Shown here piece after piece: positions 3,292 to 64,000 of a stretch of 64,000 nt of DNA. This DNA comes from Candidatus Magasanikiibacteriota bacterium (GTDB taxonomy: Bacteria > Patescibacteriota > Patescibacteriia > Magasanikbacterales > GWA2-37-8): the NCBI GenBank assembly GCA_963802255.1, contig CAWDHY010000002.1:183480-247479 (forward strand), written 5' to 3'. The notes under the pieces are model-generated. The model saw only the letters and a program-made list of their open reading frames with translations, made no database searches and was not told the DNA's origin. The position numbers and the translations under genes are program-made. Position 1 is the first letter of the stretch. The number at the start of each line of letters is the position of its first letter.

Positions 3292-4197
3292 ATGTATTCT
3301 GAAATAGCATCCAACAAACGCAAATCCATTCTGCTGGCCATGCTTTTTATCGCGATGATTATTTTACTCGGCTGGATTTTCGACCAAGTCTATGGCGAAG
3401 GCAGAACATATACCGGCATTACAATCGCCATATTATTTTCACTCGGCATGACAGCCATCTCATATTTTTCAGGTGATAAAATTGCTTTGTCGGCTACCGG
3501 CGCCAAACCGATCTCTCATGACGAAAATAAATACGTATTTCACCTTGTGGAAAATCTTTGCATTTCCGCGGGTGTTCCTATGCCAAAAATATATTTAATT
3601 GAAGACCCGGCCATCAACGCTTTTGCCACAGGCCGAGACCCAAAAAATGCTTCCATTGCCGTCACTCGCGGCGCGGTTGAAAAATTATCTAACGAAGAAC
3701 TTGAGGGCGTGCTTGCTCATGAGCTGTCACATGTAAAAAATTACGATATCCGTTTTATGATGCTGGTCGCGGTGATGGTTGGTTCAATAACTATTCTGGC
3801 TAATTTTATGTTGCGTTCCGGAGGGCTAGTCCGTGGCGGAAAGAACAGCAACCGCGAAGGAGGCTCGCAACTTTTTGCAATTCTGATGATTGTCGGTATT
3901 GTCCTTGCCATTCTTTCGCCATTTATCGCCGAACTTATCAAATTGGCAATTTCCCGCAAACGCGAATATTTGGCCGACGCTTCCGCCGCTTTACTCACCC
4001 GCTACCCGGATGGCTTGGCAAATGCATTGGAAAAAATTGCGACGGAAAATATCCCAATGCGCAAAGCATCCACGGCTACTGCACATTTGTTTATTTCCAG
4101 TCCTTTCAATGGTGGCCGTAAAAAATTTGCTTCGTTTTTTTCCACTCACCCGCCGGTTGAAGATAGAATAAAAAAGTTAAGAACAATGGGGGTGTAG
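3292..4197 (+). CDS. htpX: M48 family zinc metalloprotease (HtpX-like)
   Basis: HELSHVKNYD HExxH motif, multiple TM segments, C-terminal FSTHPPVEDRI motif. Confidence 0.8.
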   Translation: MYSEIASNKRKSILLAMLFIAMIILLGWIFDQVYGEGRTYTGITIAILFSLGMTAISYFSGDKIALSATGAKPISHDENKYVFHLVENLCISAGVPMPKIYLIEDPAINAFATGRDPKNASIAVTRGAVEKLSNEELEGVLAHELSHVKNYDIRFMMLVAVMVGSITILANFMLRSGGLVRGGKNSNREGGSQLFAILMIVGIVLAILSPFIAELIKLAISRKREYLADASAALLTRYPDGLANALEKIATENIPMRKASTATAHLFISSPFNGGRKKFASFFSTHPPVEDRIKKLRTMGV

Positions 4198-4228
4198 GTA
4201 TAGAAATCAAAAGAAACTCAAAAAACAA

Positions 4229-4249
4229 GAGCCGCTCCGAGAGCGGCTC
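4229..4249. terminator. GC hairpin gagccgctc/gagcggctc between convergent htpX and the 4281-4508 gene
   Basis: Near-perfect inverted repeat between two converging transcription units; no strong T-tract. Confidence 0.45.
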
Positions 4250-4280
4250 ATAAGCTTAAAGAACAAATCCTTCTTGCATC

Positions 4281-4508
4281 TCATTTTCTCGATGAAATTT
4301 CATCCACCAGCCGGCGCTCTTCGGGGTTCAGCACCACTTCTTCTTGTTCGTGGCTAAAATCGTCTTCGAGCAAAAACTGCACTGCTTCCGGATGCCACGA
4401 ATCCCTAGCGCCTTCAACTCCTCCCCTTCTGCGGCTTCTCCCGCCATCTGACGAGATGCCGTCAAATCTTGGTTGGTAGAGATCCTCGCTTCTCGCCCTC
4501 TTTCTCAT
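4281..4508 (-). CDS. small Arg-rich hypothetical protein (75 aa) encoded in a GC-rich island
   Basis: ORF preceded by a strong SD (aaggagggaaaATG) and a TTGACA-N17-TAAAAT promoter at 4552-4580; local GC well above the genome background. Confidence 0.45.
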   Translation of the reverse strand: MRKRARSEDLYQPRFDGISSDGGRSRRRGGVEGARDSWHPEAVQFLLEDDFSHEQEEVVLNPEERRLVDEISSRK

Positions 4509-4551
4509 TTTCCCTCCTTTTTCCCCAATTCATTTTGGGAGTGAAAAAATA

Positions 4552-4580
4552 ATTTTATCATAAATACATAAATATGTCAA
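4552..4580 (-). promoter_or_regulatory. sigma70-type promoter (TTGACA N17 TAAAAT) for the GC-rich small gene
   Basis: Consensus -35 with 17-nt spacer and an AT-rich -10 on the minus strand. Confidence 0.5.
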
Positions 4581-4648
4581 TAAAAAACAGGCTTTTCCAG
4601 CCCGTTTTTTAATTTCTTATAAATCTATATTAGTACTTATAGTATCTC

Positions 4649-4981
4649 TCATCTCTTTCTACCACGCGTCACCGGTCCAAAAATCACGTCAAATACCCGT
4701 GCCTTTCGAACTTTTCCATTTTTTGATTTAAGCCATACACTGCCTTCTAAACGGTCTATCTTTGTAACAATGTATTCAAACATTCTCAAATCATCACCGA
4801 GCTTGGCTTTATAAACCATTTTTTCTTTTAGACCGGTATTTTTAAGCCGGTCGGAAATTTTTTGCTTTTTCTCATTTGCTAAGTCCTTTAAGCCCTCGCT
4901 GACTTTGCCAAAAGCATCTGCCCGACGTTTTTGCCACGAGCTGTCTTTATTCCCCGCGCGTAGATGTTTTTTTATTGACAT
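4649..4981 (-). CDS. hypothetical basic protein (110 aa)
   Basis: Intact ORF with native AT-rich composition, immediately downstream of the phosphohexomutase gene. Confidence 0.5.
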   Translation of the reverse strand: MSIKKHLRAGNKDSSWQKRRADAFGKVSEGLKDLANEKKQKISDRLKNTGLKEKMVYKAKLGDDLRMFEYIVTKIDRLEGSVWLKSKNGKVRKARVFDVIFGPVTRGRKR

Positions 4982-4985
4982 ATAA

Positions 4986-6350
4986 TTATAAATTAATTAC
5001 ACCGCTTATTTCTTTTGTTTTTTTCTCCATCAAATCTTTTGACCGCGCTTCCAAATTCAGACGCAACAATGATTCCGTGTTGCTTGCCCTGACATTAAAC
5101 CAAAAATCAGAATAAGTAAAAGTCAAGCCGTCCAACTCGTTCAATTTTGCGTCTGCATATTTCTTGCGTAACCTAACGAGCGCCGCTTCTTTATCTGAAA
5201 TCTTAAAATTAATTTCTCCGGAATGAAAATACCTTTTTAACGGCCGCGCGTAATCGGCTAAAGACAGTCCCGTTTCATCCAGCTCTAAAAGCAATTTTAA
5301 AATAACCAGCATCGGGGCTTCATAAACGCCGTGCGGAAACTTCACGAAAAAATGACCGGAAGATTCTCCGCCAAATACTGCCCCGACTTCCAGCATCTGT
5401 TTTTTTATCAGAGAATGCCCCACTCTTGTCACAGACGGCACACCGCCATTTTCCAGAATCATATCTTCAGTGATTTTACCCGGACGAATATCGTAGCAAA
5501 TTGTCGCCCCCGGATAATCACGCAGGAAAATTTTAGCCATAATACCCCGCAAAATAGCCGGTTCTAACAGTTCACCCTCATTATCAATAAAAAATATACG
5601 GTCGCCGTCACCGTCAGTGGCAATGCCTAAATCGGCATTTTCCTGAATTACGCGCTTTTTTAAATCAAAAATATTTTCTTCCTGAAAAGGATCCGCCTGA
5701 TGCGCCGGAAATGTGCCGTCAAGTTCAAAATTCATTTTTACAAGTTCAATTTGCGGCAAATCGGCGAATAATTTTTCCAAATATTGCGCCCCCATGGCAT
5801 TCGCCGGGTCAACGACAATTTTATATTTTAAAATTTTATTTAAATCAACGCCCCGTTCTTCATATTTTACCTGCTCATCCAAAATCCCCTCTTGTTTTTT
5901 CACGCTTCCCTTTACCGGCGCATCCGTAAAGTTGTTGTCTTCAACTAGTTGTTTAAGCTCTTCCATACCACTACCTGCTCCCAGCGACTTGGAATTTTCT
6001 CTCGTAATTTTTATGCCATTATACTCTTTGGGATTATGCGATGCCGAAACCATCAACCCTCCGTCAACACCGAGATGACAAACGGCGAAGTAAAAAGTTG
6101 GAGCTGAAACCAAACCTATATCAATTACGTCGGCCCCCTGATCGGTGAGGCCGCGTATCACGGCATCTTGAAGCGACGGCGAAGACACACGCATGTCCCG
6201 GCCGGCAACTATTATTAATTTTTCTTTTTTTTCTTCACTTTTTCTTAACACGACAAATGCCCGCGCAATTTTGTACGCTAAATCTTCGGTCAGTTCCGCG
6301 CCGTAAATTCCGCGCACGTCATAGGCCTTAAAAATATTCGGAATGCTCAT
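4986..6350 (-). CDS. phosphomannomutase/phosphoglucomutase (alpha-D-phosphohexomutase family)
   Basis: FKAYDVRGIYG N-terminus, active site SASHNPKEYNGIK, metal-binding loop GIATDGDGDR, sugar-binding GGESSGH. Confidence 0.85.
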   Translation of the reverse strand: MSIPNIFKAYDVRGIYGAELTEDLAYKIARAFVVLRKSEEKKEKLIIVAGRDMRVSSPSLQDAVIRGLTDQGADVIDIGLVSAPTFYFAVCHLGVDGGLMVSASHNPKEYNGIKITRENSKSLGAGSGMEELKQLVEDNNFTDAPVKGSVKKQEGILDEQVKYEERGVDLNKILKYKIVVDPANAMGAQYLEKLFADLPQIELVKMNFELDGTFPAHQADPFQEENIFDLKKRVIQENADLGIATDGDGDRIFFIDNEGELLEPAILRGIMAKIFLRDYPGATICYDIRPGKITEDMILENGGVPSVTRVGHSLIKKQMLEVGAVFGGESSGHFFVKFPHGVYEAPMLVILKLLLELDETGLSLADYARPLKRYFHSGEINFKISDKEAALVRLRKKYADAKLNELDGLTFTYSDFWFNVRASNTESLLRLNLEARSKDLMEKKTKEISGVINL

Positions 6351-14744: not shown

Positions 14745-15183
14745 TCAGTCGGCTGGAGTGGCGTGGTTTTCCGTGTCTGGCGTGAAGTCATCGACCTCGA
14801 TGCACGGATGCTTTATGACCATCAAGGCCAGGTCGTGCTTGAAAGAGTCAATGCCCGGAACGATGTGGTGGAAATCCGGCGATAAGTCGCGCTTCTTTTT
14901 GTTGCGCAACTGCAAAGCTTGGCACTCATATATCGCCTCCAGGTCGCTCAGTCTGCGAAAGACGATCCGCTCGAGTTCCACCTGCATGTCACGGCCGTTG
15001 CGTCCTGCCCTACCAAACGCCAAAACCGTTTTGCCGTTGAGCTTGAGCGGAGTGCAGCGCACCCACAGTGGTCTCATGTCTTGCCCGCCTTTGTGTTGCA
15101 CCATTGCAACCACAAAGTCATTCCCCGCAGGATCGAAAGCGTTCTCCTTTGGCGGTAAACCCGCCCATACTTGTCTGCCCATT
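14745..15183 (-). CDS. hypothetical protein (about 146 aa) in a GC-rich island; likely start MGRQVWAGL
   Basis: Strong SD (aaaggaggagagaagaATG) and promoter TTGACG N17 TATTCT at 15261-15289; the antisense plus-strand ORF is Ser-rich low complexity and was rejected. Confidence 0.5.
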
Positions 15184-46554: not shown

Positions 46555-47745
46555 TTATTTAATAATTTTTGTTACCACGCCAGCGCCGACGGTTCTGCCG
46601 CCTTCGCGGATGGCGAATTTCATTTTTTCTTCAATGGCTACCGGTTTAATCAACTTCACGTTGAAATTGATAGTGTCACCCGGCATAACCATTTCTGTTC
46701 CTTCCGGCAAAATAACTTCACCGGTAACATCGGTAGTTCTGATATAGAACTGCGGTTTATAACCTTTGAAGAATGGTTTGTGCCGACCGCCTTCTTCTTT
46801 GGTCAACACAACGACCTGGGCCTCAAATTCAGTATGAGGATTGATAGTGCCCGGTTTGGCCAAAACCATACCGCGCTCTACTTCTTCTTTCTTGGTACCG
46901 CGAAGTAAAATGCCTGCGTTATCACCGGCCTGACCTTCTTTCAAGCTCTTATTAAACATTTCAATGCCGGTAACAACTGATTTCATTTTTTCTTCATTCA
47001 AGCCAACGATTTCAATTTCATCGTTGACATGAATAATACCGCGCTCAACGCGTCCGGTAACCACCGTTCCTCTACCTTCAATAGAAAAGACATCTTCTAC
47101 TGGCATAAGGAAAGGCTGGTCAACAGCGCGAACAGGTTCCGGGATATATTCATCAACAACTTTCATCAACTCCATAATCGGCTTAGTGGCCGCTTCATCG
47201 GTCGGATTCTGCAAAGCTTGCAGAGCTGAACCGCGGATAATCGGAGTGGTGTCGCCCGGAAAATCGTATTTTTTTAGTAAGTCGCGAATTTCCGCTTCAA
47301 CTAAATCAATCAGTTCCGGATCAGAAACTTGATCAACTTTATTTAAGAATACAACGATGTGCGGTACGCCCACTTGTCGGGCAAGCACAATGTGCTCCCG
47401 AGTCTGCGGCATCGGTCCGTCAGCAGCGGAAACAACTAAAATCGCGCCGTCCATTTGAGCCGCGCCGGTAATCATGTTCTTCACATAATCGGCATGACCG
47501 GGACAATCTACGTGCGCGTAGTGTCTCTTTTCCGTTTCATACTCAACATGGGCGGTGGAAATGGTAATGCCTCGAGCTTTTGACTCTGGCGCTTTATCCA
47601 AATCATCAACGCCTTTTGTTTGCGCGGTCATACCGCGCGCGCTTAAAACCGCCAAAATAGCAGCGGTAAGAGTTGTCTTACCGTGGTCAACATGGCCAAT
47701 AGTACCAATGTTGACATGTGGCTTGGTTCTTACAAACTCAGCCAT
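46555..47745 (-). CDS. tuf: elongation factor Tu
   Basis: [22 protein letters not shown] motifs. Confidence 0.95.
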
Positions 47746-47886
47746 ATGGTTCAATTTTTACGGCACTGCCGCCAAGTGGTTGGTGCAGATTTGTTAACCA
47801 GCCGCTTCACAAATATGTATATAAAATTAAATTGTTCAGATTCGGCACTAAAAACCTTAGAGCCGCCTGCTCCAATTTATTACGAG

Positions 47887-47914
47887 ATTATAGCAGATTT
47901 GAGGAATTTGGCAA
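47887..47914 (-). promoter_or_regulatory. tuf promoter TTGCCA N16 TGcTATAAT (extended -10)
   Basis: Minus-strand hexamers about 130 nt upstream of the tuf ATG. Confidence 0.5.
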
Positions 47915-47930: not shown

Positions 47931-48467
47931 TTACTCAACCGGTTCCAAATAGAACCTTTCTTCTTCATGCGGAACAGTGGAAAGATTCTCTTCTTCTATC
48001 CATCCAACCCTTGGCTTGTCATCAAATTTTCTTTCCCGATACACTACGTCATTCAGCACATCGGCAACCCGGGGAATCATTGTCGCTTTTTTATCAGTCA
48101 CCAATTCTTTTTCTTCCACGGTTTTTTCCTTTTCATCTTCAGCAGTATCTTCAATTGTATTATTATCCTCCACCATATCATCCGCCTCCAATTCTTCCTC
48201 ATCCTTCTTTTGAAGACCTCGCCAATCAGCAATATCACGATTTATTTTTTCCAACATTTCCTGTTCCGATAAATCACTAATTTTTTGAAAATTATGATTT
48301 GGCAATTCTTCAGGGGTCCAATCAATTTGCCTCAACTGAGCCAAATTTTCATACTCGTCCAAAGACATTACAGCAAAGACCTCGTCTGATTCGCTATCTG
48401 CGATTACCAGTCTGTCTCCTGTTTCTCTTATTAAATTGAATAGGCGTTTTAATTGTTTTGAATTCAT
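47931..48467 (-). CDS. Phd/YefM antitoxin-like N-terminal domain fused to a long highly acidic C-terminal tail (178 aa)
   Basis: The N-terminus (RLVIADSESDEVFAVMSLDEYENLAQLRQ) resembles the Phd/YefM fold; the remainder is about 35% Asp/Glu; promoter-like TTGACA N16 TAACAT upstream. Confidence 0.45.
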   Translation of the reverse strand: MNSKQLKRLFNLIRETGDRLVIADSESDEVFAVMSLDEYENLAQLRQIDWTPEELPNHNFQKISDLSEQEMLEKINRDIADWRGLQKKDEEELEADDMVEDNNTIEDTAEDEKEKTVEEKELVTDKKATMIPRVADVLNDVVYRERKFDDKPRVGWIEEENLSTVPHEEERFYLEPVE

Positions 48468-48525
48468 AAAAAATATTGTATTGATGAGTGCCGTTATGTT
48501 ATCAATTTTTCAAGAAATGTCAAAC

Positions 48526-48564
48526 AGAAAAGAAAAACCCCTGTGCTTTGAAGAAACACAGGGG
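48526..48564 (-). terminator. intrinsic terminator for the coiled-coil gene (cccctgtg...cacagggg plus T-tract on the minus strand)
   Basis: Perfect 8-bp GC stem followed on the minus strand by TTTTTCTTTTCTGTTT. Confidence 0.65.
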
Positions 48565-48589
48565 CAAAATGTTTGAAGAAAAACTTTGG

Positions 48590-49828
48590 CTAGCTTGAGG
48601 GGGAATGTTGCTTGAGGGTGGACATGGCCGCCGCGATCTCGTCCTGTAGGGTCGTTTGCAAAGCCTCTTTCGCTTTGGCCATCCTGTTCCTGGCCTCAAC
48701 GATCGCCTTCTGCATGGCAGCGGTTTCCATATCACACTCGGCCACGACGGCCAGCTTTTCATCCTGCTTTTGTTTCAGAATGGACCGACGGGAAGAGAGG
48801 TCTGCGAAGAGACTGGAAAGCTCGGACTCGACGCTCCTGATGTCCTGCATGACTTTGGCATGCGATACGCGCAAGCCCGCGAGCTCCTTGCTTTTGTCAA
48901 CCAGGTCTTCGCGCACAGTCGCCAGCTCTCGCGTCTCGTAGGTCAGCCTGGAAATCACTCCCCGAAGCAGGTCGTTCACCAGCTGCCTCGCCACGATCAC
49001 CGCGTTGTTCTCGTTGACCTCATCGGCCATTACTGCAAGCGACTCGTTGTCGGGGAAAATGATACCCACTTCGGAAAGAGCCTGACTGATCAGGCGGCTG
49101 TCGCGCAAACGACCGCCTTCGGTCGCCGAATTGGCGACTACGATTCTTTCTTCGGCTGACTCCATCTGACGGAAAGCCGCCGCTTCTGCCGCTTCTGCTT
49201 CGCGCAGACGCGTTTCGGCTTGCTCTCTCCGCGCGGAAGCCGCCTCGAATTTCTCTTGAGAGAGAATCTCGGTCGCAATCGCGTCACGCTCGGCGTTTTC
49301 AATATCCGCCTTCAATTGGTCAATCTGATGATAGACTTCTTCGAGCTCGATACGCTTCTGTCCGATGGCCTGATGGCCCTGCATGATCTTGTTGGCCAGC
49401 ATGTCCAATTCCTGAACACGCTTGTCCATTTCTTCGAGCGCTTTCTCACGGCTTCTTTTGGAAGTCGATCCGGCCATCAGCCGTTCAACGGTTTCCTGAA
49501 GCGCCACGAACTCTTCCGATTCCTTGCCGATCTTGAGGATGAAAGCGACATACGAACAGACCTGGGGTGGCTTTACCAGCCGGACGTTCTTGGCGATGAA
49601 TTGCCGAATAACCCATATCGCATCATCTTTTTCCACCCGTTCGGGCTGAAAAATATGCGCGAACACCTCACAAAGGTTGTGCTCGAATTCCTTGTTGACA
49701 CTGCGTAGGAGGCCTAGCAAGCGGTCGGCGTCATCGTTCGTGGGCGGTCTGGGCATCTGAGCGAAGAGCATTACCAGCAAGCTGATAATCTCGTCTTTTG
49801 AGTACTCCGTTTCCCTGTTTTTTGCCAT
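48590..49828 (-). CDS. GC-rich (about 53-57% GC) 412-aa protein: about 110-aa N-terminal globular region followed by an about 300-aa coiled coil
   Basis: Single long ORF across the GC-rich island; SD aaagggtga 5 nt before the ATG; heptad-like E/A/R/L-rich sequence. Confidence 0.6.
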   Translation of the reverse strand: MAKNRETEYSKDEIISLLVMLFAQMPRPPTNDDADRLLGLLRSVNKEFEHNLCEVFAHIFQPERVEKDDAIWVIRQFIAKNVRLVKPPQVCSYVAFILKIGKESEEFVALQETVERLMAGSTSKRSREKALEEMDKRVQELDMLANKIMQGHQAIGQKRIELEEVYHQIDQLKADIENAERDAIATEILSQEKFEAASARREQAETRLREAEAAEAAAFRQMESAEERIVVANSATEGGRLRDSRLISQALSEVGIIFPDNESLAVMADEVNENNAVIVARQLVNDLLRGVISRLTYETRELATVREDLVDKSKELAGLRVSHAKVMQDIRSVESELSSLFADLSSRRSILKQKQDEKLAVVAECDMETAAMQKAIVEARNRMAKAKEALQTTLQDEIAAAMSTLKQHSPSS

Positions 49829-49898
49829 TGATTCACCCTTTCCGCAAGTTTTTCTTGCTTTGTTAAAAGATCATTTTCAGCCCTTTGCCGAACGCCTA

Positions 49899-49927
49899 AC
49901 CCTAACACAGCTGTGAATCATTGTCAA
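49899..49927 (-). promoter_or_regulatory. candidate promoter TTGACA N17 TAGGGT for the coiled-coil gene
   Basis: Good -35, weak -10. Confidence 0.3.
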
Positions 49928-49988: not shown

Positions 49989-50017
49989 TTGACAAAAGTG
50001 CAAAAATGTGCTATAAT
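49989..50017 (+). promoter_or_regulatory. consensus sigma70 promoter TTGACA N17 TGcTATAAT
   Basis: Perfect hexamers with extended -10, 27 nt upstream of the 50045 ORF. Confidence 0.65.
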
Positions 50018-50044
50018 ATATATTGTCTTTAAATAATATTTAAT

Positions 50045-50443
50045 ATGCCAACACCTGAAAAAGGCGGCCATGACTGGTCAAATTGGAAGGCGAAAAAATC
50101 TGACACAACAGGACTAGATTTAGAACAGCAGGTTGCCAGAGCGACTGATGCAGCTGTTGTTGAAGGAGCGGAAGCTATTTTCCAAGATAACATCACCACC
50201 CGTAGCAGTATAGGCAGAAAAGAAATTTTAGATTACGATCCGAACGAAGAGGGAATCGCAATGCCGGACGAAAAAGCCATAAATATTAAAACAAAAACTT
50301 TTAAAGAAATACAAAATGAAAATATCAGCAATCTAAAACACAATGTTGATATGAGCGGAGCTGTGGAGCTTGGGGCGACCGGCACTGATGATGAACCATT
50401 TGAAATTGAACATGACCCGCAAATATATAAACAAGCGGGCTGA
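50045..50443 (+). CDS. hypothetical acidic protein (132 aa)
   Basis: ORF directly downstream of the consensus promoter; native AT-rich composition. Confidence 0.45.
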   Translation: MPTPEKGGHDWSNWKAKKSDTTGLDLEQQVARATDAAVVEGAEAIFQDNITTRSSIGRKEILDYDPNEEGIAMPDEKAINIKTKTFKEIQNENISNLKHNVDMSGAVELGATGTDDEPFEIEHDPQIYKQAG

Positions 50444-50471
50444 TAAATTAATAATTAATTTTAAAAATAAT

Positions 50472-50711
50472 ATGGAAAAAGAAAATTCTTTTTATAGTGG
50501 CAGTATGGAGGAAACAGGTGCTCATTTAATTGATATCCGAGAGTTTAGTCAATGGGACCCAATTCAAGAAATGCAAGAACAAATAAACCATGAAATTGAT
50601 GAAAATTTGGAAAAAGAGGCGCAATTGAGAGAATACAAAGAAGATAAAGCCAGATCAAAAAAATTATGGGAAGAAATAATGGCGAAAATCAAAAATGAAA
50701 AAGAAATCTAA
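50472..50711 (+). CDS. hypothetical small acidic protein (about 79 aa; start MEKENSFYSG)
   Basis: ORF-track 50370 start overlaps the previous gene in another frame; an internal ATG gives a non-overlapping gene. Confidence 0.35.
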   Translation: MEKENSFYSGSMEETGAHLIDIREFSQWDPIQEMQEQINHEIDENLEKEAQLREYKEDKARSKKLWEEIMAKIKNEKEI

Positions 50712-50756
50712 ATAGAGAAAATACCAGTTTGATAAAGCCATATAAAAACTAGAATT

Positions 50757-50785
50757 AAAAGAACCCCCGTTTCGGGGGTTCTTTT
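50757..50785. terminator. bidirectional intrinsic terminator gaacccccg-tttc-gggggttc with flanking A/T tracts
   Basis: Perfect stem; serves fusA (-) and the small ORFs (+). Confidence 0.75.
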
Positions 50786-50796
50786 AATATATCCGA

Positions 50797-52872
50797 TTAT
50801 TTCTTTTTACCCTCAATAATTTGTTGCGCTACATTGTTCGGCACATCGGCATAATGTGAAAATTCCATTGTTGAGCTCGCTCTGCCTTGCGTCATATTGC
50901 GCAAGGAAGTGACATAACCGAACATGCTCGCAAGCGGCACTTTGGCTTTCACCACTTTCATCTGTCCGCGGTCAAACATTTCTTCCACTTGGCCGCGTTT
51001 TGAATTTAAGTCGCCAATAACATCACCCATAAACTGTTCCGGGGTCAAAACTTCAACCTTCATCACCGGCTCCATAATCACCGGGTTGGCTTTTTTACAA
51101 GCCGTCTGGAAGGCCATTGAACCGGACATTTTAAAGGCAGCTTCAGACGAATCAACCTCATGATACGAACCGTCATAGCACGTCACCTTCACATCCACCA
51201 CCGGATAACCAGCCTGAACACCGCGAGTCAGAGATTCTTTTACACCCTTTTCCACTGCCGGAATATATTCACGGGGAATCACGCCACCCTTAATTTCATC
51301 AACAAACTCAAAACCCTTGCCCGATTCCTGCGGTTCAACACGCAACCAGCAATGACCATATTGACCGCGGCCTCCGGACTGCTTAACATATTTACCTTCA
51401 GCTTCGGCCGAGGTGCGGATGGTTTCTTTATACGCGACTTGTGGATTGCCGACATTGGCTTCCACTTTAAATTCGCGCTTCATGCGGTCCACAATAATGT
51501 CCAAATGCAATTCGCCCATGCCGGAAATAATTGTTTGCAGTGTCTCTTCATCGGTATGCACTTTAAATGTCGGGTCTTCTTCAGCCAACTTTTGCATGGC
51601 CATACCGATTTTTTCCTGATCGGCTTTCGTCTTCGGTTCAATAGCAATTGAGATGACCGGTTCAGGAAAAGTAATTTTCTCCAAAATTATCTGATGATTT
51701 TCATCGCAGAGAGTATCGCCGGTCACGGTCGCCTTCAAGCCAATGGCCGCGGCGATTTCACCGGCGAAGACTTCATCCACGTCTTCACGGTGATTGGCGT
51801 GCATGCGGACAATTCGTCCGATGCGTTCCTTCTCACAGCTGGTGGAATTATATATATATGAACCGGCGCTGACCTTGCCTGAATATACGCGGAAGAAAAT
51901 TAAACGGCCGACGAACGGATCGGTGGCAACTTTAAAAGCCAAAGCGGAAAAATGTTCATCATCATCAGCGCGCCTGGTAATTTCAGCGTTTGTGTCCGGA
52001 TCAATCCCCTGAATCGGAGGCAAATCAGTTGGAGCCGGCAAATACCAAACTACAGCATCAAGCATCAACTGTACGCCCATATTTGAAAGAGCCGAACCGC
52101 ACATTACCGGAAAGATATCTCCGCGCAAAATCATCTCACGGATGTTGTTTTTTATTTCATCAACAGATAATGTTTCGCCGTTCAAAAAATGATTCATCGT
52201 TTCATCATTTGCTTCAGCCACTTTTTCTAACATGATATTGCGAAATTTCTGAACTTTTTCCGTCAGGTCATCAGGAATAGAAATTTCCGTTACATTTTCG
52301 CCATTCTTACCTTCAAATTGAAACGCTTTATTTTCAATCAAATCAATAATGCCGGTATAGGATCCCTCTGCCCCAATCGGTAGCTGGATGGCTATGGCAT
52401 TTTTTGATAATCGTTCCTGAATGGAATCCAGACTCATATAAAAATCAGCTCCCATTTTGTCCATCTTATTGATGAAGGCAATACGCGGAACATCATATTT
52501 GTCAGCCTGATGCCAGACTGTTTCCGATTGCGGTTCCACGCCCTGTGAGCCGTCAAATACAGCCACAGCGCCATCAAGCACGCGCAAAGAGCGCTCCACC
52601 TCCACGGTAAAGTCAACATGGCCGGGAGTATCAATCAAATTTATACGGTGACCCTTCCAAAAACAGGTAGTCGCGGCTGAAGTAATAGTAATACCGCGCT
52701 CTCTTTCCTGCTCCATCCAATCCATCTCTGCCGCACCTTCGTGTACTTCACCGATTTTATGTTTTTTTCCGGTGTAAAAAAGCACGCGCTCGGAGATAGT
52801 GGTTTTACCGGCATCAATGTGGGCCATAATGCCGATATTTCTTGTCTTATCCAATGGATATTCACGAGGCAT
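50797..52872 (-). CDS. fusA: elongation factor G (start [25 protein letters not shown])
   Basis: GTPase motifs [21 protein letters not shown]; five-domain length. Confidence 0.95.
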
Positions 52873-52888
52873 ATATATGTGATTAATT

Positions 52889-53365
52889 TTATTTTGCGAA
52901 TCTTGCAAAGTGAGCGAAGGCCTTGTTGGCTTCAGCCATACGATGTACATCATCGCGCTTTTTTATGGCATCACCTAATCCTTGCGACGCTTCATTTAAT
53001 ACAGTAGCAAGCTTCTCCAGCATCGGCTGGCCTTTTTTGGCGCGTGCCGCATCAATAATCCAGCGGAAGGCAAGCGCGTTCTGTCGTTCGCCGCGCACCG
53101 GCAACGGCACCTGATAGTTGGCGCCACCGACGCGTTTGGAACGGACTTCCACTTGCGGGGCGACAGTGCGGATTGCTTCTTCAAAAATTTTCACCGCGTC
53201 CTTCTTGGTTTCCGCGGAGATTTTATCCAAAGCACCATAAACGATAGCTTGTGCAGTTGATTTTTTACCGCCAAGCATTACATAATTGATAAATTTTCCG
53301 AGCAAAGCGTTGCCGTATTTTGCATCCGGCTGTGGCAGTCGCTTTGGGGCTTTTTTTCCACGCAT
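52889..53365 (-). CDS. rpsG: 30S ribosomal protein S7
   Basis: 158 aa, S7 signature. Confidence 0.9.
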
Positions 53366-58700: not shown

Positions 58701-59021
58701 TTATAATCCAGGGAATGGCGGGTCGCTATAATCCGGCTCGTCGCCATATTTGCGGTATGATTGAACCGCCTTTTCAAAACGAGGATAAGCACTCGCAACC
58801 GCAAAAATAATTATCCGCCTAAACAAAAAACCGATCACAAAAATAGAAGGCACAATGATGAAAGCAAAATATTTCGAACCAGCAACCTCCGCCGCCAAAA
58901 TAATACCGGCAATAAAGGAAATCGCAAAAAGTAAAAAAACACCCCACCTAATGAAAAAAAATTCGTAGAGACCGGCGAGCACATCAACGGCGTCACTGCA
59001 GGATTCTTCATCTTTTGACAT
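58701..59021 (-). CDS. hypothetical small membrane protein (two TM helices)
   Basis: Intact 106-aa ORF with two hydrophobic segments. Confidence 0.4.
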   Translation of the reverse strand: MSKDEESCSDAVDVLAGLYEFFFIRWGVFLLFAISFIAGIILAAEVAGSKYFAFIIVPSIFVIGFLFRRIIIFAVASAYPRFEKAVQSYRKYGDEPDYSDPPFPGL

Positions 59022-61126: not shown

Positions 61127-61390
61127 ATGGAAAATGATTTAAACCCGGTGCCGCTAATGTTGCCCGAACCGGGACTCGGCCAAAAATTATTTAAACAGCT
61201 CATTATCCTTGGCGCCGCGTTAATTATTATCATAGCCGGTTGTATTTTTGTTTATTTAAAAAAACAACCCCCAAAAGAGGATGACCGCGCGCAGATAATT
61301 ATTCCCATACCTACAATTCCTATGATACTTGCATCTGAAGCGTTTCAAAACGAAGGATATATCCCAGGCAAGTTCACTTGTGACGGACTA
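61127..61390 (+). pseudogene. N-terminal fragment of a membrane-anchored PEBP/YbhB-like protein, truncated at the compositional junction
   Basis: TM helix then YIPGKFTCDG (PEBP signature start); the reading frame then runs into GC-rich DNA with non-protein-like translation. Confidence 0.35.
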
Positions 61391-61750
61391 AATATCAACT
61401 CCCACGGGCACAGACTCGGATGTTATCCTCAGTGGCGCTCCGACAGTGGATTCATCAATGCCAAGGTGATGCAGAACTTGTGTTTGCCCCTCAACATTGC
61501 CTCCGCCATGGCTTCCCATGGCTGCTACAATAAATGGCTGCGCTCCCATGGCATGCAGAGAATCGACAACTGTTTTCAATACAGACGGGATGCCCGTGAT
61601 TCCCCTGCTCCCGGCCGTAACAGCAACGCTCATGCCGGGATGCACGCTGGATGCAAATCTTTGCATCTGCTGCTCAATCACAGCGGCAACATTATCGATG
61701 CGCGGCCTTGGGAAATGCTGTCGTATTTTTGCAAGCGCCAACTGTTTCAT
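61388..61750 (-). pseudogene. N-terminal 120-aa fragment of a LarA-like (DUF2088, lactate racemase N-terminal domain) protein, truncated
   Basis: MKQLALAKIRQHFPRP...MSVAVTAGSRGITGIP...AAMGSHGG pattern like the LarA N-terminus; ends at the junction with AT-rich DNA. Confidence 0.3.
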
Positions 61751-61821
61751 CGCTATAGTTTGTCCTTATCATAGAGTCTTTGCAGGATTACCGTTCGGAA
61801 ATCCTGCAAATAATCGCTTCC

Positions 61822-62796
61822 TTACTTCAGCTTCATCAATTTTTCTTCAGATAGAAGCTGTTTTATCAGCTCCGTCTGCTCCTGCATATATTTCGTTGCC
61901 TGCGCCATGTTCATGGGGTTGGGCACAAAGCCAGCGTCTGTTAATTTGGCCTGGACTTCCTTGTCGGTAACAACTGCATAGAACGCTTTGTCAAGCTTCT
62001 GTTTGATATCCTCCGGAAGATTCTTCGGCGCAATTATGCCACGGTCAATACGCGGATAAATCTTGTACCCCATTTCAGCGAATGTGGGAACATCCGGCAA
62101 TTGTTTCATCCGCTGTTCCGTGCCTACCGCAAGAATTTCCACCCCGCTTCCTTGCATTTCAACTGCAGCAGGTGAGTTTGTAAACGCCGCATCGACGTGT
62201 CCACCCATGATTTGCGGTTTTACCTGTCCGGTCCCCTGCAGCGGGATATACGTCAGTTGAATGCCGGCCAGCTTCATGAACTGGAGCACATTCAGATGTG
62301 GCCCTGAAAATTTTCCTACGGCGGATATCGTTATTTTCCCCGGGTTTTTCTTTGCGTAGTCGATAAATTCTGTCAGCGTCTTTGCCGGAAACCCTTTCTT
62401 CACAACGAGCGTTGCCGGGGTGTTCTCAATCATCGTAAGATATGTGAAATCCTCTGTCTTGTACTGAACATCCTCCATCGTAAGCGGCTGCGTGATAACA
62501 TGCGGCGAATTGAAGCCCGCAAGCGTATATCCATCCGCCTTTGCATTCGCCAGGGTCTGCCATGCGAGCGCACCACCGGCAGCCGGCTTATAATCCGGAG
62601 CAAAACGGACGCCGAGCGCCTTTTCAAAATACGGTTGCATGGCCCGGAATTCGATATCCGACTCGCCCCCGGGATTGAATGCGATGATGTACGAGATTTC
62701 TTTTGCCGGATACGTTTCGCCTGCTGCCTGGACTGCGGTTACTGAAAAAACAAGAACAACTGACAGGATGATGCTGACAAAATGTTTTCTTTTCAT
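61822..62796 (-). CDS. tctC: tripartite tricarboxylate transporter substrate-binding protein (TctC/Bug family), GC-rich
   Basis: Signal peptide, 324 aa periplasmic binding protein typical of the Bug family. Confidence 0.7.
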   Translation of the reverse strand: MKRKHFVSIILSVVLVFSVTAVQAAGETYPAKEISYIIAFNPGGESDIEFRAMQPYFEKALGVRFAPDYKPAAGGALAWQTLANAKADGYTLAGFNSPHVITQPLTMEDVQYKTEDFTYLTMIENTPATLVVKKGFPAKTLTEFIDYAKKNPGKITISAVGKFSGPHLNVLQFMKLAGIQLTYIPLQGTGQVKPQIMGGHVDAAFTNSPAAVEMQGSGVEILAVGTEQRMKQLPDVPTFAEMGYKIYPRIDRGIIAPKNLPEDIKQKLDKAFYAVVTDKEVQAKLTDAGFVPNPMNMAQATKYMQEQTELIKQLLSEEKLMKLK

Positions 62797-62844
62797 TGCG
62801 ACTCCTTTCTCTTTAAGGTGAGGTTATTAAGAGGTCCTAACGTT

Positions 62845-64000
62845 TCATACATCATCATCGCCGATCTTTTCCTTGAGCTTTGACCTTCTGTTGCGGATCG
62901 ACGGAAGCATTGTCGACATGATCAGCAGGGCAGACACAGTCATGAATGTTGCTGAAATCGGTTTTGTTAAAAAAACGCTCGCGTCGCCCTGATTGATCAG
63001 CAGCGAGAGGCGGAGATTGCTTTCCATCATCGGTCCAAGAACAAGGGCGAGAATGAGTGGCGCCATCTCGAACTTGAACTTTCGCATCAGGTATCCAAGA
63101 ACTCCGAATCCGATCATCAGGCCTATTTCGACCTGACTGAAGTTCAGGCTGTAGACGCCGATGAGGCAGAAGATAAGGATGAGCGGGAACAAAATTGAAT
63201 AGGGAATTTTCAAAACCTTTATCCAAATGGGGATTAAAGGCAGATTCAGTACGAGCAGCATGGCGTTGCCTAGATACATGCTTATGATCGTTCCCCAGAA
63301 AATATCCGGATATTTTGAAATGAACATGGGTCCCGGCTGTAACCCATGTACCATGAATGCACCGAGAAGAACAGCAATAACCGAATTTGCCGGAATACCG
63401 AGCGTAAAGAGCGGAATCATGGCGCCGCTGGAGGCCGCATTGTTCGCAGCCTCCGGACCCGCGACTCCGGCGATGAAGCCGGTCCCGAATCTTTCAGGGG
63501 TTTTTGAAAGTTTCTTCTCCAATGCATAGGATGCGTAGGTGGAAATAACCGGCGAAGGGCCCGGCAGCACGCCGATCAGAAAACCGAGCCCGCTTCCGCG
63601 CAATATCGGCATAATGGCGTCTTTCCAGTCCTGAAGATTCGGGAAAAGGTTCTTCACCTTTTCCGTAACAAGCGTTGTTGGGATAATCCGTTCCACGTTC
63701 ATCAGGATTTCTGAGATGCCGAAGAGCCCCATCACCGCGGGGATAAAGCCGATTCCGTCAGCTAGCTCAAGAACTCCGAACGTAAGCCGCTGCGTTCCTG
63801 CGATGGTATCCATGCCGATGGTGCCGAGCAGCAGACCAAACACGGCGGTCATAAAATCTTTTAGAATCGTACCGGACGACATGTAAATGATGATGACAAT
63901 ACCCATCAGCAGCATCGAAAAATATTCAGGCGGACCGAAGGCGAGCGCAAACTCCGCCATGGGAGGCGCCAGAAGCACTATACCGACAATGCCCAACGTG
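62845..64000 (-). CDS. tctA: tripartite tricarboxylate transporter permease TctA, C-terminal about 383 aa (gene continues beyond window end)
   Basis: Multi-TM permease with TctA-type sequence; GC-rich composition continuous with tctC. Confidence 0.7.
   Translation of the reverse strand, partial: TLGIVGIVLLAPPMAEFALAFGPPEYFSMLLMGIVIIIYMSSGTILKDFMTAVFGLLLGTIGMDTIAGTQRLTFGVLELADGIGFIPAVMGLFGISEILMNVERIIPTTLVTEKVKNLFPNLQDWKDAIMPILRGSGLGFLIGVLPGPSPVISTYASYALEKKLSKTPERFGTGFIAGVAGPEAANNAASSGAMIPLFTLGIPANSVIAVLLGAFMVHGLQPGPMFISKYPDIFWGTIISMYLGNAMLLVLNLPLIPIWIKVLKIPYSILFPLILIFCLIGVYSLNFSQVEIGLMIGFGVLGYLMRKFKFEMAPLILALVLGPMMESNLRLSLLINQGDASVFLTKPISATFMTVSALLIMSTMLPSIRNRRSKLKEKIGDDDV

Follow-up and report, generated by a model that had tools for sequence, protein, structure and literature searches.

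One described parallel within the Candidate Phyla Radiation (CPR) comes from the Gracilibacteria, where a hypervariable gene with codon usage shifted toward GC-ending codons has been reported (Sieber et al. 2019, PMC6851277). Another point of reference is the genomic islet gained by horizontal gene transfer (HGT), with its atypical GC content, GC content at third codon positions (GC3) and codon usage, its sharp boundaries and its patchy distribution. All of these islet features are found in a GC-rich gene for a coiled-coil protein that lies in a 64,000-nt stretch of DNA (hereafter the window, meaning that whole stretch) from a Candidatus Magasanikiibacteriota bacterium (contig CAWDHY010000002.1, positions 183,480 to 247,479 of the forward strand). 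Unlike such islets, however, this gene has no donor homologues or mobility machinery, has co-diverged with its flanks, and has kept its anomaly over ~1 synonymous substitution per site. An earlier note on the same DNA had proposed acquisition from a GC-richer donor that uses Shine-Dalgarno (SD) sequences; the contrasts in composition and SD use on which it drew are real, but the donor has gained no positive support. The reading favored here, with a probability of roughly 55%, is that of a resident, lineage-restricted accessory gene, vertically inherited in its lineage, with a GC and SD anomaly that is maintained rather than left behind by a donor. A literature search found no paper on the fusA–tuf locus in which the gene resides or on SD usage in Patescibacteria.

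Gene order, relatives and inheritance

The interval 48590..49927 contains one open reading frame (ORF) on the minus strand. Its coding sequence (CDS; 48590..49828, −) starts with ATG and encodes a 412-aa protein of 46.5 kDa with an isoelectric point of 5.2. The gene is positioned between fusA, encoding elongation factor G (EF-G; 50797..52953, −), and tuf, encoding elongation factor Tu (EF-Tu; 46555..47754, −). This fusA–tuf gap lies a short way upstream of the S10 ribosomal-protein operon and contains three more small genes, here called p178, p132 and p80.

Relatives of the coiled-coil protein are few and confined to a narrow clade. Among 5.8 billion 90% clusters, it matched only itself and P0002, a protein of Magasanikbacteria. 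A profile built from these two sequences and run against 1.84 billion representatives added a single protein, P0003, through the N-terminal domain only (E 2.9e-5), and P0003 as query retrieved nothing further. GTDB genomes, JGI metagenomes (scanned twice), IMG/VR, phages and plasmids contained no match other than the Magasanikbacteria metagenome-assembled genome (MAG), and no relative outside the narrow patescibacterial clade was found among ~15 billion proteins, 2.9 million viral contigs, phages and plasmids.

The relatives that do exist all show one gene order: fusA, one or more small genes on the opposite strand, the coiled-coil gene, a p178 homologue, and tuf. An orthologue with 62% amino acid identity occupies the same slot in the Magasanikbacteria MAG (L001/L002), a 5′-truncated one with 70% identity occupies it at locus L009, and a more distant one occupies it at L003/L004, where the match is again through the N-terminal domain (E 2.9e-5). 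The nearest genome is the Candidatus Magasanikbacteria MAG JAPLWQ01, with 95% amino acid identity in tuf. An independent Logan contig carries the identical protein with identical neighbors, and the relatives come from independent assemblies; because these show the same arrangement, the locus is not an assembly chimera. Further fusA–tuf intervals were recovered using p178 homologues as a handle. In five of them (L005, L016, L007, L012 and L014), a coiled-coil gene of 377-579 aa without a Pfam match sits in the same position. Locus L011 has no coiled-coil gene, and L013, from a Parcubacteria genome, has unrelated genes in the slot.

The gene is under purifying selection. Its closest homologue, P0002, is likewise 412 aa long and is 62% identical, and the codon positions of the two genes differ by 0.47 at the third, 0.25 at the first and 0.20 at the second position, with dN/dS (nonsynonymous relative to synonymous divergence) of 0.16-0.23. 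Moreover, its divergence keeps pace with that of its surroundings. Between the window and L001, the codons for identical residues differ at a rate of 0.42 in the coiled-coil gene and 0.26-0.46 in nine flanking genes. Nei-Gojobori dS for the gene is 1.18 (window-L001), 1.13 (window-L009) and 0.94 (L001-L009), next to 0.91 for tuf, 1.75 for p132 and 1.95 for p178, and BLASTN returns a single alignment that starts in the leader, spans the CDS without a break and reaches tuf. Since dS is in step with the flanks, gene and surroundings have diverged together from the ancestor shared by the window, L001 and L009. There is no tRNA within 17 kb and no integrase, and the only flanking repeats are short, chance ones.

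Composition and expression signals

With a GC content of 0.551 and a GC3 of 0.678, the coiled-coil gene has the highest GC of all genes in the window; the means for 64 other ORFs are 0.426 (sd 0.035) for GC and 0.410 (sd 0.051) for GC3 (z = 3.6 and 5.2). In an earlier estimate of 53-57% local GC against a background of 36-38%, the background figure fits the immediate flanks only (0.374 at 48001-48500 and 0.36-0.38 at 50001-51000), the window mean being 42.6%. Codon usage, when compared with that of the native genes, is likewise atypical (synonymous-codon log-likelihood under native usage, z = -4.0). In 100-bp steps, the change in GC matches the ends of the CDS, rising from 0.35 to 0.58 at the stop codon and falling from 0.56 through 0.42 to 0.30 at the start.

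This make-up is not peculiar to the window. GC3 is 0.68 in the coiled-coil gene of the window and 0.41 in its neighbors, and the corresponding values are 0.79 (GC 60.9%, flanks ~45%) and about 0.34-0.52 for L001, 0.73 and 0.52-0.54 for L009, 0.69 and 0.36-0.54 for L003, 0.63 and 0.42-0.53 for L005, 0.66 and 0.37-0.51 for L016, 0.80 and 0.48-0.57 for L007, 0.76 and 0.25-0.56 for L012, and 0.75 and 0.48-0.57 for L014. Thus all eight further loci with a coiled-coil gene in the slot have a GC-rich one (GC 55-63%), and the five positional counterparts (L005, L016, L007, L012 and L014) range from 57 to 63% in GC and from 63 to 80% in GC3. Every copy avoids TTA, has raised use of GAG, AAG, TTC and AAC, and encodes a product in which Ala, Glu and Arg are abundant, the R/(R+K) ratio being 0.56-0.63 versus 0.37 +/- 0.09 for native proteins. 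The slot neighbors p178, p132 and p80 have GC3 values of 0.34-0.49, native or below native. Because all related genomes in which the slot is filled show the GC-rich, SD-bearing make-up again, it does not mark a recent import.

What sustains the bias was approached by elimination. Translational selection was considered and rejected, the codon shift being uncorrelated with that of tuf, fusA and the ribosomal-protein genes (r 0.12, p 0.37); it does correlate with the shift of other GC-rich, SD-bearing genes in the window (r 0.34-0.44). For neutral decay, an approximate calculation of our own was made with a two-state model that relaxes to native GC3, taking as inputs ~0.5 synonymous substitutions per site per lineage, ~84% of them altering GC class. 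Under this model, ~57% of the GC3 excess would have been lost since the window/L001 split, and neutral amelioration is inadequate because an ancestral GC3 >1 would be required. Since neutral decay, a preference tied to high expression, and regional bias or gene conversion are each argued against, the bias would appear to be maintained by selection on the gene or the mRNA itself.

Judged by its signals, the gene is predicted to be an autonomous expression unit, because a terminator closes fusA (50788..50754), the gene has its own putative promoter and terminator, and p178 and tuf have separate promoters. The promoter that the earlier note had ascribed to the gene alone is found again as one of the extended -10 type, invariant or near-invariant at five related loci. 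It is predicted at 49899..49927 (−), with the -35 element TTGACA at 49927..49922, a 17-nt spacer ending in TGn, and the -10 element TAGGGT at 49904..49899. A consensus scan missed it, as the -10 element matches the consensus at 3 of 6 positions. Its parts are conserved: TTGACA is invariant, and TGn and TA(G/T)(G/T)(G/T)T recur with the same spacing in the window, L001, L003, L005 and L007. The private rho-independent terminator described earlier is also recovered. This predicted intrinsic terminator (48527..48565, −) has a stem of 12 pairs, 6 of them G-C, with the hairpin and T run at 48565..48537 after the stop codon, and an equivalent hairpin follows the gene in L009, L003, L005, L007, L012 and L016.

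An SD-like sequence, GGAAAGGGTGA (49833..49843, −), lies 4 nt before the ATG. Its predicted duplex with the canonical 16S anti-SD has an energy of -12.7 kcal/mol, whereas the other genes average -2.9 (sd 2.8), and 3 of the 65 genes in the window fall below -11 kcal/mol. The earlier contrast between a recognizable SD here and SD-poor native genes thus stands, with the addition that this SD is one of three strong ones in the window. Upstream of native start codons stand A/T-rich stretches, for example AATAATAT. An SD-like motif precedes the gene in L001, L003, L005, L007, L012, L014 and L016, that is, at every locus for which the 5′ end is available, and in the positional counterparts it is of the GAGGAGG type.

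Between promoter and SD lies a leader that is predicted to be structured. The 85-nt leader has a minimum free energy (MFE) of -16.9 kcal/mol (z -3.2), and none of 200 shuffles was as stable. Its 5′-proximal hairpin (49876..49892, −), TTCGGC-AAAGG-GCTGAA followed by a U-rich run, looked like a terminator in the scan; it appears both in the single-sequence MFE fold and in a consensus fold of the window, L001 and L003, with one G-C pair replaced by G-U. Downstream, an anti-SD-like sequence, GAUCUUUU (49865..49872, −), is the predicted partner of the SD, pairing with GGAAAGGG in the MFE fold and in the alignment fold of the same three loci. The helix so formed would enclose a second hairpin (49844..49858, −), GCAAG-AAAAA-CTTGC, immediately 5′ of the SD; L001 has the identical hairpin, and L003 retains part of it. 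A leader of ~65 nt may therefore be able to mask the SD and so regulate initiation.

Together, these parts would make up a cassette of extended -10 promoter, ~65-nt hairpin leader, SD, CDS and intrinsic terminator that occupies the variable fusA–tuf slot beside a conserved set of small genes (p132 and p80 on the opposite strand, and p178). In the lineage of the window, vertical inheritance of the cassette would go back beyond the divergence from two or more of the relatives sampled, its composition and SD being maintained most plausibly by selection tied to the way in which the mRNA is expressed: a structured, GC-rich message would need an SD, and the leader could mask it, whereas other genes would start from A/U-rich, SD-less leaders. 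It is conceivable, as a hypothesis, that SD-dependent, maskable initiation on structured GC-rich mRNAs constitutes a distinct regime within an SD-poor genome.

Two other genes of the window bear on SD use. The first, at 14745..15182 (−; 145 aa, leader to about 15262), lies between radA and recG and is also GC-rich (GC about 54.5%, GC3 about 0.68). It has a very strong SD (AAAGGAGGAGAGAAGA-ATG), a promoter, TTGACG-N17(TGn)-TATTCT, similar to that of the coiled-coil gene, and a leader in which CUCUCCUUUG pairs with the SD (-33.4 kcal/mol, z -3.1), a clearer case of predicted SD masking; its product has no match in Pfam, NCBIfam, PHROG, PADLOC or plasmids. The second, at 58701..59021 (−), encodes a 106-aa predicted membrane protein and combines a perfect GAGGAGG SD with native GC (0.42), so that SD use in this genome is not strictly tied to GC-richness.

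Slot variability and competing origins

Over longer times, the cargo of the slot is lost, replaced or added. By fusA, L011 (95% identity) is closer to L001 than the window is (89%), and L011 nevertheless lacks the coiled-coil gene. Its gap (4423..5606 of that locus) contains a non-homologous 145-aa gene on the opposite strand and a p178 that is only 46% identical, a content out of step with the flanks. Loci L005 and L012 are close relatives by their fusA (97%), tuf (97%) and p178 (84%) identities and by flanking DNA that is 85-86% identical, and yet DNA similarity is lost over the stretch that begins at the fusA terminator and closes with the coiled-coil CDS, and the two coiled-coil proteins are 22-27% identical with different layouts. 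In the pair L005 and L016, with fusA 99% identical and p178 identity as for L005 and L012, the coiled-coil proteins share 53% identity and the same layout. When L005 is compared with L007, alignment is possible in the leader (74%) and beyond the stop codon (80%) and not in the CDS; the proteins are 28% identical, with their termini and a central motif kept. Replacement or loss of the cassette would probably proceed via recombination in the highly conserved flanks. The idea of foreign acquisition thus retains one element, a slot whose content changes between close relatives, and loses another, a recent import from a donor.

A further type of cargo is seen in L014, where a purF-like amidophosphoribosyltransferase gene (3373..4758 of that locus, +) stands between the coiled-coil gene and p178. 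It has a GC content of 58.7%, a GC3 of 0.70 and a AAAGGAGG SD, and it scores 332 bits against TIGR01134, just below the cut-off of 350. Such a gene is atypical of CPR genomes and has the look of cargo imported into the slot.

Several observations weigh against the favored reading of a resident gene with a maintained bias. Third-position changes that could be polarized are few and mixed, with ratios of GC-to-AT versus AT-to-GC changes of 24:10 in the window, 8:12 in L001 and 22:6 in L009, and the copies in the window and L009 may be losing GC slowly. Direct evidence that selection upholds the bias is lacking, the polarized changes being too few to establish equilibrium. The alignment of the window, L001 and L003 contains no covariation or compensatory change in the SD-masking fold, and neither L005 nor L012 clearly shows that fold. 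At the sequence level, the counterparts in L005, L007, L012 and L014 have no significant homology to the family of the window (hmmsearch E >1; hhalign E 0.008, probability 5%), so the argument that GC-richness is a family trait rests partly on position and architecture; composition and layout are common to all the counterparts, and L012 and L014 have the N-terminal motif pattern by eye. Finally, no proposed function for the product has homology support.

The most direct alternative is that the lineage of the window recently acquired the gene horizontally and that donor composition and translation signals are still on display. The strong outlier status in composition and codon usage, the strong SD, the GC boundaries at the CDS ends, the lack of relatives in most CPR genomes and the absence of the gene from one close relative (L011) would all suit such an event. 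It is nonetheless highly improbable, given syntenic orthologues in L001, L009 and L003, a dS like that of the flanks with dN/dS about 0.2, GC-rich counterparts wherever the slot gene occurs, and a promoter and leader that are AT-rich, native-like and kept in five loci. Neither a donor homologue in the databases searched nor mobility genes, a tRNA or flanking repeats were found, and the differing junction sequences that independent insertions in L001 and L009 would leave are not seen in the alignments. Of the two findings that the earlier note had set against its own proposal, a composition typical for the genome and conserved CPR homologues with native codon usage, neither cleanly applies: homologues are conserved in related CPR genomes, and their codon usage is not native. 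An ancient or recurrent horizontal origin carries considerably more weight, though it too seems unlikely on present evidence. In this scenario, the cassette circulates from an unsampled, GC-richer reservoir (another lineage of Patescibacteria, a mobile element or phage of the CPR, or a host bacterium), enters through the ultra-conserved flanks, and owes its composition to re-seeding rather than selection. Cassette replacement between close relatives, patchy presence and the excess of GC-to-AT changes in the window and L009 lineages speak for it. So, at the expense of the favored reading, do the GC-rich, SD-bearing purF-like gene in the same slot of L014 and the foreign look of the other GC-rich, SD-bearing genes of the window (tctC/tctA and the 145-aa ORF), with whose codon shifts, and not with those of highly expressed genes, that of the coiled-coil gene correlates. 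Against this origin, no member of the reservoir turned up among the ~15 billion proteins, 2.9 million viral contigs, phages and plasmids, the trio of window, L001 and L009 has kept the bias over ~1 substitution per synonymous site, and a promoter, leader and terminator that stay constant as the CDS changes would require precise swaps of the CDS alone.

Two other explanations dispense with a donor. GC enrichment might arise secondarily from GC-biased gene conversion, with fusA and tuf on either side of a recombination hot spot; recombination does occur in the slot, and bacterial genes that recombine reportedly show elevated GC3 (Lassalle et al. 2015). This is very unlikely, since p178, p132 and p80 have GC3 values that are native or below, conversion tracts would not respect gene boundaries in the way that the GC step does (within 100 bp of the CDS ends), and recombination with its anchors in the flanks ought to raise GC there and not in the cargo. 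The ORF might also be no protein gene at all; the GC-rich stretch could instead be an artefact of assembly, encode a structured RNA, or code in two frames. GC-rich segments of AT-rich genomes are often RNA genes, and long antisense ORFs (109-167 aa) occur. However, there is no Rfam match, the 412-aa frame has the same length in relatives with dN/dS about 0.2, third-position divergence is twice that of the first and second positions, and independent assemblies agree, so that this explanation can be set aside almost entirely. A dual coding or antisense gene was rejected as well, the longest antisense ORF (182 aa) being as expected from synonymous shuffling (176 +/- 45).

Elsewhere in the window, the pair tctC and tctA (61822..63996, −), encoding a tripartite tricarboxylate transporter, has a GC content of 0.50-0.51, a GC3 of 0.56-0.62, an AAAGGAG SD before tctC, and the least native codon usage after the coiled-coil gene. 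These two genes are a more conventional HGT candidate than the coiled-coil gene, and the adjoining gene at 61127..61774 (+) is mildly GC-shifted.

The neighbors within the slot are of native composition. Directly upstream of tuf, p178 (47931..48467, −) encodes a conserved acidic protein and has a promoter (48523..48496, −) separate from that of the coiled-coil gene. Across Patescibacteria, p178 has 89 relatives; it occurs upstream of tuf with or without a coiled-coil gene, and amounts to an uncharacterized, widely conserved CPR gene of the str operon. Its conserved ends comprise an N-terminal MNSKQLKRLFNLIRETGDRLVI, weakly Phd/YefM-like, and a C-terminal VPHEEERFYLEPVE; the match to Phd/YefM (PF02604) is below threshold, at 16.4 bits versus a cut-off of 29.8. 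A type II toxin-antitoxin pair formed with the coiled-coil gene was considered and rejected, as the antitoxin domain is sub-threshold, the genes are set apart by a terminator and a second promoter, and p178 is found also without its partner. On the other strand, p132 (50045..50443, +) encodes a divergent small acidic protein that is 67% identical to its counterpart in L001 and 44% to that in L003, and a p132-like gene is present alongside the coiled-coil gene at every locus that has one. Its predicted promoter (49989..50017, +) has a perfect sigma-70 consensus, TTGACA-17-TATAAT with TG, is kept in 5 of 5 aligned loci, and would drive both p132 and p80 (50472..50711, +). The latter encodes a small protein, MEKENSFYSG..., homologous to the product of an 80-aa gene in L012. 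Finally, tuf has a near-consensus predicted promoter (47914..47887), TTGCCA-16-TATAAT, and a leader (47775..47914, −) containing GGCAGTGCCGT that is strongly conserved at all loci examined, distant ones included; it is possibly a regulatory leader for tuf.

In its broadest and most speculative form, which we regard as doubtful, the favored reading suggests that a Magasanikbacteria-like clade keeps a dedicated slot in the str operon, furnished with promoter, SD-masking leader and terminator, where recombination exchanges one deeply divergent, GC-rich coiled-coil gene for another. These genes and a small number of others rich in GC would form an SD-translated, regulated class that is not foreign, and the fast-changing protein could serve in conflict with a host or phage. 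If the reading of a resident gene with a maintained bias is right, atypical GC combined with an SD would be an unreliable flag of HGT in SD-poor CPR genomes, and the locus would offer a vertically inherited, compositionally deviant gene whose bias survives ~1 substitution per synonymous site. It also raises the question of dual translation initiation in Patescibacteria, with SD-dependent, GC-rich mRNAs on one side and A/U-rich, SD-less leaders on the other. The slot is also a variable locus within one of the most conserved bacterial operons, and its fusA and tuf flanks ease recovery from metagenomes. Were recurrent import the correct explanation, the slot would simply be a hot spot of HGT fed by donors that have not been sampled, and of modest interest.

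The protein and its likeness to known systems

An N-terminal domain of ~110 aa followed by a ~300-aa coiled coil had been read from the sequence, and AlphaFold2 (AF2) modeling agrees with that description, predicting a six-helix domain and two heptad helices. The N-terminal domain (residues 1-122; 49463..49828, −) is the sole part detectable by sequence in P0003. Its six helices are predicted within residues 11-118, and the domain modeled alone reaches a predicted local distance difference test (pLDDT) score of 84.7 and a predicted template modeling (pTM) score of 0.80. The two predicted arms are helix 1 (residues 124-238; 49115..49459, −), with a hydrophobic periodicity of 3.50 (z 5.3), and helix 2 (residues 263-408; 48605..49042, −), with a periodicity of 3.55 (z 2.4). 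They are joined by an apex or linker (residues 239-262; 49043..49114, −), where pLDDT is <50 for residues 233-271. The apex and the start of helix 2 form the most conserved stretch, LSEVGIIFPDNESLAVMADEVNENNAVIVARQLV, whose motif is recognizable in P0003, and residues 238-300 have the lowest dN in the protein (0.138).

Searches for known relatives of the product were negative. It belongs to no family in Pfam, NCBIfam, PHROG or PADLOC, giving only sub-threshold coiled-coil noise, and a PDB sequence search returned nothing at E <0.28. With Foldseek, the best matches were antiparallel coiled-coil fragments (Smc, RipA and Rad50), none of them significant. No transmembrane or signal-like segment was found (N terminus MAKNRETEYSKDE..., maximum 19-residue Kyte-Doolittle mean 1.02). 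The six-helix head plus coiled-coil arm is thus a family with no annotated relative. The product would be an acidic cytoplasmic protein with a six-helix head and a two-helix coiled-coil arm of ~115 residues ending in a conserved apex, and its likeliest role, proposed with low confidence, would be that of a scaffold or adaptor that binds its partners through the helical head and the tip of the ~17-nm arm.

Much like the variable loci with divergent alleles exemplified by streptococcal emm (M protein) and the central regions of flagellin genes, the slot has a coiled-coil product, a CDS that diverges far faster than its flanks, unalignable versions in closely related genomes, and conserved expression signals and termini. 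Hypervariability between close relatives with conserved ends is indeed what is found here, from 53% identity (L005/L016) through 28% (L005/L007) to unalignable (L005/L012). Unlike surface coiled coils of the M-protein type, the product has no signal peptide, wall anchor, export signal or transmembrane segment, which leaves exposure at the surface without support; moreover, a dN/dS of 0.2 indicates no diversifying selection on the whole gene, and there is no sequence relationship.

The arms of SMC, Rad50 and MukB, including those of Lamassu LmuB and Wadjet JetC, resemble the modeled protein in their two long heptad helices and conserved apex, and they supply its best, though non-significant, structure and hidden Markov model matches. 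The Foldseek hits to Smc and Rad50 are coiled-coil fragments with E >=0.02, the model itself having a pTM of 0.35. Those proteins differ in having an ATP-binding cassette (ABC) ATPase head and a hinge or zinc hook, in place of which the protein described here has a 120-aa helical bundle without a relative. No ATPase domain (Walker A/B) was matched, the alignments covering coiled-coil columns only at 14.5-17.8 bits versus cut-offs of 567-1087, and the sequence has no CxxC hook motif.

Bacterial coiled-coil-rich, intermediate-filament-like proteins such as crescentin, FilP and Scy share with the modeled product a head-rod-linker-rod layout, a rod in which Ala, Glu, Arg, Gln and Leu are abundant, and a cytoplasmic location. 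A head, a segmented heptad rod and a tail can all be recognized in the predicted helices and their 3.5-residue periodicity (z 5.3 and 2.4). Sequence similarity to these proteins was not detected, and AF2 and Foldseek favor an intramolecular hairpin, not a parallel dimeric rod.

Finally, the hypervariable gene of Gracilibacteria (PMC6851277) offers the same combination of a CPR genome, one locally hypervariable gene and synonymous codons shifted toward GC. That gene is rich in repeats (the PTD repeat), encodes an extracellular product and varies within a population, whereas the coiled-coil gene of the fusA–tuf slot is non-repetitive and varies between lineages.

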